Positions 18,660-21,235 of a stretch of 49,661 bases of DNA are shown piece by piece; within the stretch, counting starts at the first letter, position 1, and every line of letters starts with the position of its first letter. Made by a program: the position numbers and the translations under genes. A model generated the notes under the pieces. It was given only the letters and a program-made list of their open reading frames with translations. It had not been told where the DNA came from and did not search any database. This DNA comes from a virus: IMG/VR virus record IMGVR_UViG_3300022747_000006, positions 1 to 49,661 of that record, one strand, 5' to 3'.

Positions 18660-19361
18660 TCAAGTAAATTTCTTCATTGACTTCATATCAGGCCCAAACT
18701 TTGATTCACAAGCCATTGGAACGCTCCACTTGTACCCAAAGACACTGTAAATACGACTAGGCAAATCCACAAACACTCCGTCAAATATGTTCCGTAAGTC
18801 TCCAAGCCACTTCTCTCTAGTATCGACCACAATACTATCGTGAACAGTAGATATGAAGTCACAAGGAATACCAGCATCTTCAATCCTTTTCTTAGCCATA
18901 ATACGAGCCAACATCATTACATCAGCACCAGTGCCTTGAACTGGGTAGTTTGTAAGAGTTGTCCAAGGAACTTTAAGTTCTCCTCTATAGTCTCGCTTGG
19001 GGGGACAATCCCAACTTCTTCCCATGGGGCCGACGATTGTTTTGCCACCCATAACGGTATCTTTCCATCTTTGATGACAAGAGTCAATGCCCCGATATTT
19101 TGCATAGAATTTTGCATTCATTTCATCCCAGAATTGGCTGCTAGTACTAACGTGCATAAAGTCGGGATCATTGGCGAAAGACCATCCAGAGCCACGATAA
19201 ATGGTACGGAACAGGAAAATCTTTGCAATGAGTCGGCTAGGTAGTCCAAAAGCTTCTTGGTTTTTAGCATGGGTGTCTTCACCTCCTAAAATTTCTTGAA
19301 TACCTACGTTGTCTTTAGCAAGTTCGAGTAGGGTACGCCACTCAAAGCTGCGACGCATCAC
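18660..19361 (-). CDS. DNA polymerase I family, C-terminal fragment (rest of motif A, plus motifs B and C)
   Basis: 233 aa. [15 protein letters not shown] compares with the Pol I segment [39 protein letters not shown] (motif B, R..AK...F...YG) and TVHDSIVVD (motif C, HDE-type). Starts GTG 19361 / ATG 19358. Confidence 0.85.
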   Translation of the reverse strand: [233 protein letters not shown]

Positions 19362-19543
19362 ATTGGATTAACATCGCCTACCTCCTTTCGCTTAAGATCT
19401 CCGGCTGCAATTTCTAAAGCTACTTGTGCAGCTACGTGTTTAGCAAAAAGATAGCGATCAAAGACATAGCAAATATTAAATATTTCATCTGGAATGCCTA
19501 CCAAAGACATTGCATAGAGCTCATCAATTTTTTCTTTATTCAT
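19358..19543 (-). CDS. Hypothetical protein (within the polymerase insert)
   Basis: 61-aa ORF. Its stop TGA overlaps the start of the Pol C-fragment. Confidence 0.4.
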   Translation of the reverse strand: MNKEKIDELYAMSLVGIPDEIFNICYVFDRYLFAKHVAAQVALEIAAGDLKRKEVGDVNPM

Positions 19544-19718
19544 TTAAATCATCTACCACAAAAGGAACTGACCGTACATCTGGATATTTTGCAAAAAACT
19601 CTTCTTTGGTAATGTCTTTTCCGATAACAATCTCCTCATATGGAATATTTTTATTCAACAGTTTACTTTTTAGCACCATGCAAGCAGGACAATTGGGTTG
19701 TGAATAAACAGTTTTCAT
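19536..19718 (-). CDS. Glutaredoxin / NrdH-like redoxin (within the polymerase insert)
   Basis: 60 aa. MKTVYSQPNCPACMVLK (CxxC after a beta-strand) and RSVPFVV (cis-Pro loop region) fit a thioredoxin fold. Confidence 0.7.
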   Translation of the reverse strand: MKTVYSQPNCPACMVLKSKLLNKNIPYEEIVIGKDITKEEFFAKYPDVRSVPFVVDDLNE

Positions 19719-19900
19719 TTTCTCAACAATGCTGCAACAGGTTTCTCTGGAAAGCGATTGATTTGTACTTTCATTTCCTGAAACAAATCAGGATAGAATG
19801 ATTGGAAGTCTGCAAGCACTCGTCGTGCTCCATATTGTTGCATAGATGATGCCAAAGTTACCATCACGTCGTTATAGTCCAGAAGTTCTTGTTCATTCAT
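19715..19900 (-). CDS. Hypothetical protein (within the polymerase insert)
   Basis: 61-aa ORF, overlap-coupled on both sides. Confidence 0.4.
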   Translation of the reverse strand: MNEQELLDYNDVMVTLASSMQQYGARRVLADFQSFYPDLFQEMKVQINRFPEKPVAALLRK

Positions 19901-20109
19901 TTATCAATCCTATCATCAAAACAGGCACATCCACGTTCAAGGCATCCTATATCCATCTTTTGTGAAAGATTGACTATACTAGCCTCCCATCCACGTTTAA
20001 AGGCTGTATAGCGCCTATTAGCCAACTCCTGTCCCTCCTCGGTCATTGGAACTTGCCAAGATTCTGCTTCTCTCCATGCAAGGTATATATCCCGTTCTTC
20101 ATCAGTCAT
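19897..20109 (-). CDS. Hypothetical protein (within the polymerase insert)
   Basis: 70-aa ORF. The ATG at 20109 overlaps the end of the Pol N-fragment. Confidence 0.4.
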   Translation of the reverse strand: MTDEERDIYLAWREAESWQVPMTEEGQELANRRYTAFKRGWEASIVNLSQKMDIGCLERGCACFDDRIDK

Positions 20110-21235
20110 AATATTTACTCACAAAAATGTCTTGTAGTTCAGAGGCGAAGTTTTGCAAATTGGGTTTACTACTACTAAGCCTTCCTGTTTGAGCAATGGT
20201 TTGATTGAAGTTGCCATGTAACAAGCCAGGTTCCCAATGCATTTCTTCTCTAAGTTTCACTAGTCCGGTATAATAGGTTCCATTAAGTTTTTCTAGTTTG
20301 GAGAGTTCCAAGATGAGGTCTACAAGAGCACGTTTACCTTTCAGCTTACGTAAGGTAGATTCATCTACTGCATAATTACCTTCCTTAGCCATTTCACTGC
20401 CCTTCAATGGAGTGAACATACGAGGAAGCTTGTGCTCAATAATTATGTTTTTGTACTTGGGCTGCCCGGCTTTCTGTCCAGATTTAAAATACCCGATATG
20501 TTCCTTGCCATCTTCTTTAACTGTTCCGCCATAAAGAAAGGCAGACAAATGGTCATTAGAGGCAAAATTAATAGGAATGTTAGGATAGATAGCTTTGAGT
20601 TTTCCCTTAATCTCTGTGATCTTGTCATCCACCTCCTGTGATCGTTGTTTACAAAGCTGTTCGTCAAATGGAATGCCGTTGCCTTCCATTTCCTGTAGGA
20701 TTTGCAGGTCTTGACACATCAAGTAACAAAGCTTCACTTGGGCAGGAGACATAAGCTTTCGTTGTGCATGGTAACAAGCAAGTGTTAGCTCGGCATCTCT
20801 AGTCGCGTATTCTTCCAGCACATCCCAAGGGATTTCGTCTGTGTTAATTCCTTTATCCCAATACTCTGTTTTAACTACGTCGAGTTTAGGCTCGAAGCCA
20901 TACTTGAGAGCTGTTTCATTTAAGCTAGGCAGTCGATTCGTTTGGTTGGACAGGATGAACTCTGCGATTTGCACATCCCAGATTTGCTTTCGTCGCAAGA
21001 TTGATAGACCGTACTTGAGCAACCAGTGCAAGTCGAACTTGAAGTTGAATCCAATAACCAGTCGAACACCTTGGAGAAGATTTTGCACCAGAACAATGTT
21101 ATCACTATGATGAGCACCACTCCCAATGGTACTAGTAGGGCTAGCATAACTAATGCAAACAAGCTTGTTACGACTGTCATAAGCGTTCCCTTTATTCCAT
21201 GTTGTTGTTTCGGTATCGAGGGCTAAGACATTCAT
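20102..21235 (-). CDS. DNA polymerase I family, N-terminal fragment (3'-5' exonuclease plus the polymerase domain up to motif A)
   Basis: 377 aa with Exo I LALDTETT and [14 protein letters not shown] (Pol I: TGRLSSTDPNLQNIP). It ends ...[12 protein letters not shown] followed by TGA TGA. Confidence 0.85.
   Translation of the reverse strand: [377 protein letters not shown]

Follow-up and report, generated by a model that had tools for sequence, protein, structure and literature searches.

A candidate +1 frameshift at a shifty stop in the catalytic subunit gene of a two-gene phage family-A DNA polymerase

The IMG/VR virus record IMGVR_UViG_3300022747_000006, analyzed here from position 1 to 49,661 (49,661 nucleotides [nt]; "the window"), encodes on its minus strand a family-A DNA polymerase in two genes, and the second gene, which specifies the catalytic aspartate, is interrupted after ten codons by one extra T that creates an in-frame UGA. 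A conserved +1 ribosomal frameshift at this "shifty stop," CUU UGA, is in our view the best explanation of the arrangement, and a probable one. The site belongs to a series of short recoding interruptions, not reported before, that occupy one homologous position; the split of the polymerase itself is already known.

The second polymerase gene and its interruption

Pfam exonuclease and polymerase profiles extend across two open reading frames (ORFs), which bears out a first-pass annotation, made from the letters alone, in that both family-A pieces are real. Gene 1 matches PF01612 (DNA_pol_A_exo1) at 6e-9 and PF00476 (DNA_pol_A) at 3.2e-19 over profile positions 51 to 132. The second piece as called matches PF00476 at 8.2e-14 over profile positions 163 to 377. 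Matches in the Protein Data Bank (PDB) to Klenow, Taq, and Bst, with E values of 1e-16 to 4e-22, place the enzyme in family A (Pol I type). The features of the locus are as follows.

20102..21235, minus strand: PolA gene 1, 377 amino acids (aa), with the 3'-5' exonuclease domain (DTET), the thumb, and the N-terminal palm; its end point is common to 35 related loci.
19381..19387, minus strand: Shine-Dalgarno (SD) sequence AAGGAGG, with 6 nt between it and the corrected start of gene 2.
19345..19374, minus strand: zero-frame leader of gene 2, ATG TTA ATC CAA TGT GAT GCG TCG CAG CTT, encoding the motif-A beta-strand.
19342..19347, minus strand: recoding site, CTT TGA and then G; T 19344 would be skipped (+1) and GAG 19343..19341 read after Leu.
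18660..19343, minus strand: body of gene 2 in the +1 frame, 227 codons plus stop, with the rest of motif A, motif B, and motif C (VHDSIVVD).
18660..19361, minus strand: piece 2 as called, 233 aa, with motifs B and C.

The catalytic Asp codon is GAT at 19359..19357, inside the leader and in frame +1 to the called ORF. Skipping T 19344 joins leader and body into a 237-aa protein in which DASQLEWR is restored and which is collinear with unshifted homologues. Among the best 120 homologue clusters (90%-identity clusters), most are exactly 237 aa long and have the same N-terminus as the leader-plus-body product of the window. Motif A (strand-D-x2-Q-[IL]-E-x-R) aligns to Taq only after the +1 shift, with motifs B and C in the body, and in the PDB alignment piece 1 plus the corrected piece 2 runs without a gap against Taq and Klenow across both split and shift. 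Gene 2 of related phages likewise opens with the motif-A strand and its Asp: MLVSIDAGQIEWR in an Alcaligenes phage, MILNADAKALEWV in the OM43 phage MEP402, and ...IMECDFSQLEVV in Vibrio phage ICP2. On these alignments, the break between the two genes lies in the loop just before the motif-A strand.

Initiation signals differ between recoded and unshifted genes. A strong SD stands upstream of all 15 distinct recoded leaders tabulated and also in the related loci (designated by L numbers) L127, L129, and L002. It is absent from 12 of 18 unshifted leaders, which rely on TAATG stop-start coupling.

Gene 1 provides the exonuclease domain, the thumb, and part of the palm; the fingers (motif B), motif C, and the motif-A strand bearing the catalytic Asp come from gene 2. 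In the ORFs scanned, which take in most of the replication module (primase-like, helicase, polA, a 182-aa ORF, 5'-3' exonuclease, HNH, phosphoesterase, ThyX, and class II ribonucleotide reductase), neither Pfam nor PHROG reveals a further polymerase domain. The phage's only recognizable replicative polymerase therefore appears to be a family-A enzyme made from two genes, whose products would have to assemble noncovalently. AlphaFold2 applied to the concatenated 614-aa protein without an alignment gave an unusable model (mean predicted local distance difference test score, 34).

Inheritance of the extra nucleotide

Six homologue clusters begin MRRSFEWR..., as does the called ORF of the window. 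At the DNA level, CAG CTT T GAG TGG behind the same leader recurs in six other distinct sequences, giving seven sequences of this type (type a) with the window included. The other carriers come from independent assemblies (ERZ650273, GROS21 samples, ERZ27292844, IMG 3300025635, and Logan; five assembly datasets) of different samples and years and lie on near-genome-length contigs. Across carriers the stretch ...GAT GCG TCG CAG CTT T GAG TGG... is identical, with synonymous differences downstream. Sequencing error was rejected as the source of the extra T, since independent assemblies share it yet differ at those downstream synonymous sites. A scan of metagenome DNA with the pattern GATGCNNNNCAGCTTTN{0,1}GAGTGG returned 63 loci, nearly all of them chance matches in unrelated contigs, and four real polA sites.

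The sequence on both sides of the T is constrained. Among the seven distinct type-a gene 2 bodies, nucleotide identity is 74 to 92%, synonymous divergence (dS) reaches more than 1, and the ratio of nonsynonymous to synonymous divergence (dN/dS) is 0.05 to 0.24, as expected under purifying selection; the pair L005/L008, which shares the module and the upstream ORFs, has a dS of 0.23 and a dN/dS of 0.24. All 15 distinct recoded leaders tabulated keep the zero-frame peptide M/V-L-I/V-Q-x-D-A-x-Q amid synonymous codon variation, which argues that the leader is translated. Because the T is inherited, the bodies are under purifying selection, and no other polymerase domain occurs among the ORFs scanned, both sequencing error and simple pseudogenization are unlikely.

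Type-a sequences are 96 to 99% identical from about -47 to +8 around the shift, with unrelated sequence upstream (~37%) and 75 to 90% identity downstream, and in a tree of gene 2 bodies they are interleaved with unshifted sequences. Since the near-identity is only local and the carriers are interleaved, the block of SD, leader, and shift site (~55 nt) would either move by recombination or be under strong constraint at the nucleotide level.

Other short interruptions at the same site

The extra T is not the only lesion found here. About 20 of the 120 cluster representatives are interrupted in or beside the QLEW codons, and the interruptions of related lineages measure 1, 2, 4, 6, 7, and 10 nt.

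+2 variant: CAG CTT [TA] GAG, stop UAG; seven distinct leaders with synonymous variation.
7-nt variant: CAG [AGGCCAT] CTY GAA; two sequenced loci (L015, L123) and three protein clusters.
10-nt variant: GAA [TAGCTACGAT / TAGCTACGTA] TGG; L037, L036; in RNA letters, GAA UAGCUACGAU UGG.
4-nt variant: CAG [A CAA] TTG; L124/L125.
1-nt variant: extra A in an A5 run; L002 (MW202697).
6-nt in-frame variant: CAA CTT TAG CTA GAA TGG in L127 at ~2960..3000 (ERZ4224772 NODE_202) and CAA CTT TAG CTT GAA TGG in L129 at 7150..7176 (IMGVR_UViG_3300020045_000892).

The +2 variant, CAR CTT TAG AGT GG, is present in L016, L034, L042, L043, L049, L080, L084, and L092, and in most +2 sequences the site is the 5' arm of a 9-bp hairpin formed with the downstream CUAGAGCUG. 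Pairs of take-off and landing codons seen in relatives are CUU/UUA, CUU/CUA, CUU/CUU, and CAG/CAA. The CUU variants among them fit re-pairing of a P-site tRNA-Leu beside a stop: CUU UAG AG would need +2 and land on UUA, and CUU UAG CUA/CUU GAR would amount to a +6 hop. For the 7-, 10-, and 4-nt variants, the candidate pairs are CAG/CAU, GAA/GAU or GUA, and CAG/CAA, respectively. The UAG between matched Leu codons in L127 and L129 is a candidate natural stop-hop, in which 9 nt would yield one Leu, present in two diverged lineages; a 2016 recoding review knows of no natural in-frame stop-hop. L127 also keeps the relic of an older leader (TAATGCTTATCCAATGTGACGCA) ~95 nt upstream, which argues that the module was inserted into the motif-A region.

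Proposed decoding of CUU UGA

We infer both the ribosomal mechanism and its efficiency from this anatomy. Gene 2 would initiate at ATG 19374 behind the strong SD, and after ten codons the ribosome would meet the UGA that results from the one extra T. The peptidyl-tRNA-Leu, paired with CUU in the P site while UGA stands in the A site, would slip +1 onto UUU, and GAG would be decoded next to give ...CDASQLEWR... and the normal 237-aa catalytic subunit; ribosomes that fail to shift would release a 10-residue peptide. The strong initiation signal may compensate for a probably modest shift efficiency, as the presence of the SD in recoded relative to unshifted leaders suggests. The site lies exactly ten codons from the strong start, and this spacing may matter given that ribosome load alters prfB-type frameshifting.

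The +1 shift of prfB provides the natural comparison, as there a tRNA-Leu moves from CUU to UUU while UGA occupies the A site. CTTTGA is the nearly invariant slippery-plus-stop sequence of prfB, which has a classical SD-like AGGGGG stimulator 3 nt upstream and a C after the UGA. The window site, CAG CTT TGA G at 19350..19341, offers the same slippery CUU U, an in-frame UGA, and a downstream +1 frame; as at prfB, it is also conserved, here across the seven distinct type-a sequences, and the frame beyond it is under selection. The two systems share the identical CUU UGA hexamer, a shift early in the ORF, and, as proposed, the same P-site event with UGA waiting. They differ in that the window lacks the internal SD-like AGGGGG, has G after the UGA, and encodes a polymerase subunit with no obvious counterpart of RF2 autoregulatory logic, and in that sister lineages use UAG.

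The larger interruptions have parallels of their own. Weiss et al. (1987), on synthetic shifty-stop hops in E. coli, name +1, +2, and +6 events in their title; the +1, +2, and +6 variants match these, each being, as proposed, a re-pairing beside a stop, and differ in being natural where the Weiss constructs were engineered. A candidate 10-nt bypass in the terminase gene of Streptomyces phage Hau3 (PMC10732093) resembles the polymerase sites as a short coding gap in an essential phage gene, yet involves a rare UUA rather than a stop and a different gene.

A hairpin at the shift site is a weak lead only, and its complementarity follows in part from the codons used.

19323..19346, minus strand: predicted 9-bp hairpin, UUUGAGUGG / CCUACUCGAA, whose 5' arm begins inside the shift site.

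When 46 nt from the Gln codon are folded, the minimum free energy (MFE) structure is a hairpin with the shift site in its 5' arm in 6 of 6 type-a, 5 of 7 type-b, and none of 18 unshifted sequences (mean MFE, -9.4, -12.8, and -7.9 kcal/mol, respectively). A phage-encoded frameshift-suppressor tRNA was considered separately and excluded, as ARAGORN finds no tRNA gene in the window.

Several observations weigh against a +1 shift or against the evidence marshaled for it. There is no SD-like stimulator 3 nt upstream of the CUU, where GAT GCG TCG CAG stands instead; the sole SD is that of initiation, 33 nt upstream. The base after the UGA is G and not the weak-context C, being forced as the first base of the Glu codon. 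Because the prfB stimulators are absent, shift efficiency may be low. Shuffle z-scores for the SD/AUG and shift-site hairpins are not significant in type a (-0.6 to +0.05), with one +2 variant at -2.1. Among the siblings, the 7-nt AGGCCAT insert has no conserved stop and the 4-nt insert has no stop, and neither fits simple slippage. One homologue, P0065 (239 aa, on a 1,760-nt contig), carries an in-frame duplication of QL, MLLQADASQLQLEWR (D-x6-E), which hints either that the motif-A loop tolerates two extra residues or at an assembly artifact; on the first reading exact restoration might not be needed, the 7- and 10-nt variants included. The module is 96 to 99% identical among carriers with differing flanks, so most of the divergence between lineages may predate its acquisition, which weakens the dN/dS argument and leaves only L005/L008 to bear on selection after acquisition. 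The trans-frame product, finally, is a predicted one.

Alternative explanations

The first-pass annotation had placed the cut at the motif-A aspartate itself, with an active site assembled from two polypeptides, the C-terminal Asp of piece 1 as the catalytic residue, and piece 2 starting at GTG/ATG 19361/19358. Joining ...YYD to RRSFEWR does give the D-x4-E-x-R spacing, and all four type-a carriers with a known piece 1 end finish in D. That annotation had itself named an alignment to intact PolA as the test that could refute it, and the alignment to Taq and Klenow puts motif A, Asp included, entirely in gene 2, which refutes the assignment of the catalytic Asp to piece 1. The end of piece 1, ...FVSKYYD, aligns to Taq ...FIAEEGW, so that its terminal Asp corresponds to a Taq Trp six residues upstream of the catalytic Asp. 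Relatives end piece 1 in any of D, N, H, E, S, Y, T, and G, and the residue is also D in many unshifted genomes that have their own motif-A Asp. The supposed start, MMRRSFEWR, is out-of-frame DASQL plus the one-base shift, and the beta-strand that had seemed too short before the Asp is present in another reading frame; this adjacent frame holds the complete strand and Asp, has its own SD, and is conserved as coding. We give this model hardly any credence. A related idea, that of a three-piece enzyme in which the released 10-residue peptide contributes strand and Asp in trans and so complements piece 1 and a piece 2 that lacks the Asp, draws on the facts that the clade already tolerates a break right before the motif-A strand and that the zero-frame product is exactly strand plus Asp. 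Stable binding of a free decapeptide is unlikely, though, and we know of no precedent for one completing a polymerase; moreover, type-c L123 and the 4-nt variant read on in the zero frame for 8 to 12 further codons, which leaves no defined peptide conserved. This too we judge very improbable, if slightly less so.

A different kind of explanation is that the extra T simply inactivates gene 2, leaving a pseudogene or a crippled allele in phages that are defective or rely on another polymerase. A premature stop at codon 11 of an essential gene, the lack of a prfB-type stimulator, and a module that looks recently spread, with possibly little time under selection, would all suit this view, which is the strongest of the competitors and still unlikely. 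Set against it are the recurrence of the lesion in seven distinct type-a sequences from differing samples and years on near-genome-length contigs, the dN/dS of 0.05 to 0.24 that includes one pair diverged after acquisition, the strong SD and intact zero-frame leader in every carrier, the lack of a second polymerase among the ORFs scanned, and the recurrence of this pattern in no fewer than six further lesion types at the site. Correction of the frame in the transcript, whether through editing or because RNA polymerase slips on the T run, is suggested by the position of the extra base in a TTT run and of that in L002 in an A5 run; yet productive transcriptional slippage requires homopolymers longer than three T, and neither process accounts for the 2-, 4-, 6-, 7-, and 10-nt variants at the same site, several of which keep a stop directly after the take-off codon, a ribosomal signal. 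We regard such correction as quite improbable. Least credible of all is a single-chain polymerase produced by a self-splicing intron or by split-intein halves, even with a probable group I intron in the helicase gene of the same window and with the intron idea raised by the authors of the MEP401/402 study (PMC10580990). Rfam yields no relevant RNA family near polA (whole window at the gathering threshold; gap between the genes at E<=10, where it is empty), and a search of 18900..20600 for Intron_gpI is negative even at E<=10. ORFs occupy the gap, and different ones from one relative to the next; every relative starts gene 2 from an SD and ATG of its own; piece 1 of the Alcaligenes phage ends in a 14-residue C-terminal tail and abuts gene 2; and the gapless Taq alignment leaves no room for intein blocks. 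On this point the first-pass annotation, which had argued for a polymerase in two pieces involving neither an intein nor a group I intron, is upheld.

A +1 ribosomal frameshift thus remains our preferred account of the CUU UGA site.

The split in related phages

We observe the same break widely. In 35 distinct related metagenome loci, piece 1 stops at the same residue (...DIF[IV]SKYxx and then the stop), and the gap to gene 2 ranges from -1 to 1004 nt with differing sets of small ORFs. The closest relatives found by tblastn against phage genomes all have the polymerase as two annotated genes. In Alcaligenes phage QDWS535 (50% identity) the two genes abut without an insert, piece 1 ending ...FVSRFSH followed by its 14-residue tail; in MW202697 an R67-DHFR-like ORF lies between them, and in OM43 phages MEP401 and MEP402 one small ORF. 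Breakage falls between ...FxS(K/R)(Y/F)xx and M-L-(I/V)-x-x-D, as it does in QDWS535 and MEP402; in Vibrio phage ICP2, with a 9-nt gap, it lies ~14 residues upstream of the common position. The largest gap seen, 3.6 kb, separates the genes of L126 (MW202796.1, 6923..12392) and holds seven genes, including those for a cytosine-specific methyltransferase and a stomatin-like protein.

The report on MEP401/402 (PMC10580990) described a two-ORF polymerase, noted "split DNA polymerases in most group I MVGs," and speculated about an intron. These and related Zobellviridae-like phages resemble the window in domain partition, break region, and synteny (helicase, polA-1, small ORF(s), polA-2, unknown ORF, exonuclease), at 39% protein identity. 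They differ in that gene 2 of MEP402 is unshifted and its gap holds one ORF against four in the window, and in that the paper reports no frameshift and suggests an intron. Our own literature searches, which did find the split polymerase described, turned up no published frameshift in it. So wide a distribution indicates that the split became fixed long ago in a large clade of phages; as such it is already published. The small-gene cassette of the window had been proposed to have created the split. It did not, as relatives share the break whatever lies at it: no insert in QDWS535, a single ORF in MEP402, and 3.6 kb with seven genes in MW202796.

Further fragmentation is seen in some loci. At 1216..2789 of L124/L125, an Endonuclease_7 (PF02945) ORF splits piece 1 into an exonuclease ORF (234 aa) and an ORF for the N-part of the polymerase (165 aa), giving an enzyme in three pieces. 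Gene 2 has a second interruption, after ~142 codons, in L042/L052 and L043/L048, where the tblastn match spans 922 nt against 672.

The interval between the two genes

ORF calls, Pfam, and PHROG agree with the earlier description of four overlapping small ORFs (70, 61, 60, and 61 aa) between the pieces, one of them a glutaredoxin.

19897..20109, minus strand: gap ORF1, 70 aa; its ATG overlaps the end of gene 1 by 8 nt; no Pfam or PHROG match.
19715..19900, minus strand: gap ORF2, 61 aa, ending ...PVAALLRK.
19536..19718, minus strand: gap ORF3, 60 aa, glutaredoxin/thioredoxin fold with a CPAC motif (PF00462, 1.6e-7; phrog_22, thioredoxin domain, 8.6e-12).
19358..19543, minus strand: gap ORF4, 61 aa; its last 17 nt overlap the gene 2 leader.

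Counterparts of these ORFs occur among the relatives. L007 has a 70-aa ORF at the position of gap ORF1, matched by length and position alone, and a 61-aa ORF at that of gap ORF4 with the same ...RKEVGDVNPM ending; L012 has a 60-aa PF00462 ORF in the place of gap ORF3. In many unshifted relatives an ORF with a C-terminus like that of gap ORF2 lies directly 5' of gene 2 (...AALLRK in L020, L023, and L031). Neither Pfam nor PHROG finds a nuclease domain in the four gap ORFs. The larger gap ORFs of relatives have no Pfam match, and PHROGs gave one endonuclease and one phosphoesterase. The interval looks like a landing pad, or hot spot, for small accessory genes.

It had also been described as a 749-nt insert bounded by TGATG. 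The intergenic interval proper is 20101..19375, or 727 nt, and the downstream "TGATG" contains the catalytic GAT codon. TGATG occurs 192 times in the whole window against 149 +/- 11 expected, five times on the minus strand within 19356..20104 alone. A pentamer so common was rejected as a boundary repeat or target-site duplication; its excess is consistent with pervasive coupling of small genes by overlapping stops and starts (ATGA, TGATG).

Possible reasons for keeping the interruption

The reason for retention can be proposed only by analogy. We suspect that the interruption keeps a homing endonuclease from cutting the conserved motif-A DNA, a role that the bypass cassette plays in T4 gene 60. 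In T4 genes 39/60, the topoisomerase is split at its metal-binding site by a MobA element and the ribosome bypasses 50 nt; a non-triplet insert early in the downstream half shields the DNA from MobA, and the endonuclease has often since been lost (Manning & Atkins preprint). The polA site is possibly an analogue of this cassette. In both, an essential replication enzyme is split beside a metal-binding catalytic motif, the endonuclease gene between the halves is variable or lost, and a non-triplet interruption lies a few codons into the downstream gene, one that at the polA site the ribosome would have to overcome. Possible further likenesses are a stop or hungry codon after the take-off codon and a mobile module, with lineages in which the split is kept and the cassette lost. 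The systems differ in that the interruption is 1 nt here (1 to 10 nt in relatives) against 50 nt. In the window a stop follows CUU, and the proposed landing codon, UUU, overlaps it. They differ also in that the window gap contains no endonuclease gene; no homology to MobA or to the gene 60 cassette was seen, though no test for it was made. In the +2 carrier L042, the polA gap does hold a 169-aa endonuclease VII/HNH-like ORF (phrog_3322, 5.9e-34). The Aeromonas phage Aeh1 NrdA, as cited in the Manning & Atkins preprint, is another replication-related enzyme split into two polypeptides, which reassemble, and is associated with the free-standing homing endonuclease MobE; on that account it differs from the polymerase in being another enzyme, in having no recoding, and in keeping its endonuclease in the gap.

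Homing elements are common in this phage group, which makes protection by the interruption plausible, if unproven. Two are predicted in the replication region of the window.

22167..22899, minus strand: 733-nt interruption of the DnaB-like helicase gene between ...GPIIWF and NNEEQGNKV... (exons 22900..23435 and 21581..22166).
16669..17052, minus strand: 127-aa HNH endonuclease ORF (PF01844, 1.8e-7), immediately downstream of the 5'-3' exonuclease gene.

The helicase interruption holds an HNH_3/NUMOD4 endonuclease ORF (22777..22310), and no start codon is present in the exon that follows it. Its boundaries conform to those of group I introns, with U as the last base of the 5' exon and G as that of the intron, and on both flanks Rfam Intron_gpI has subthreshold matches (29.7 and 28.4 bits; E, 2e-5 and 5e-5). 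A group I intron carrying a homing endonuclease is the probable reading. The 127-aa ORF is probably a free-standing homing endonuclease, and L005, L007, L117, and L127 have an ORF with a faint PF01844 match at the same position.

Taken at its widest, the proposal is that CTT_TGA belongs to a family of short "immunity" interruptions (1, 2, 4, 6, 7, and 10 nt) carried on a ~55-nt recombining SD-leader module that has repeatedly entered the motif-A region of split polymerases. All of these would be decoded by a slip or hop of the P-site peptidyl-tRNA, including the first natural in-frame stop-hop, and would be kept by hiding the target from homing endonucleases. This wide form is tenable but doubtful, and we advance it tentatively. 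If true, it would constitute a second, independent system of the T4 gene 60 type, in a different enzyme and with much shorter gaps.

Elsewhere in the window, three adjacent ORFs at 26580..29259 on the minus strand have Pfam matches to RimK-like ATP-grasp, class II glutamine amidotransferase, and Amidoligase_2, and MEP402 is also annotated with a glutamine amidotransferase.

Implications

Gene callers start the catalytic subunit at a spurious ATG and lose its catalytic Asp, an error that affects about one in six of the related 90%-identity clusters present in public data and that would mislead surveys of viral family-A polymerases about such enzymes. A two-subunit polymerase broken just before the motif-A strand is in itself a natural experiment in polymerase assembly. 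If the ribosome repairs the frame, the window would offer a natural case, in a phage replication gene, of RF2-type +1 shifting that dispenses with the classical SD stimulator, and this +1 site, beside natural +2, +6 (stop-hop), and longer variants, would form a comparative series for what makes a shifty stop work. The site also bears on whether selfish endonucleases drive phages to keep lesions in essential genes, a question that has so far rested almost wholly on T4 gene 60.

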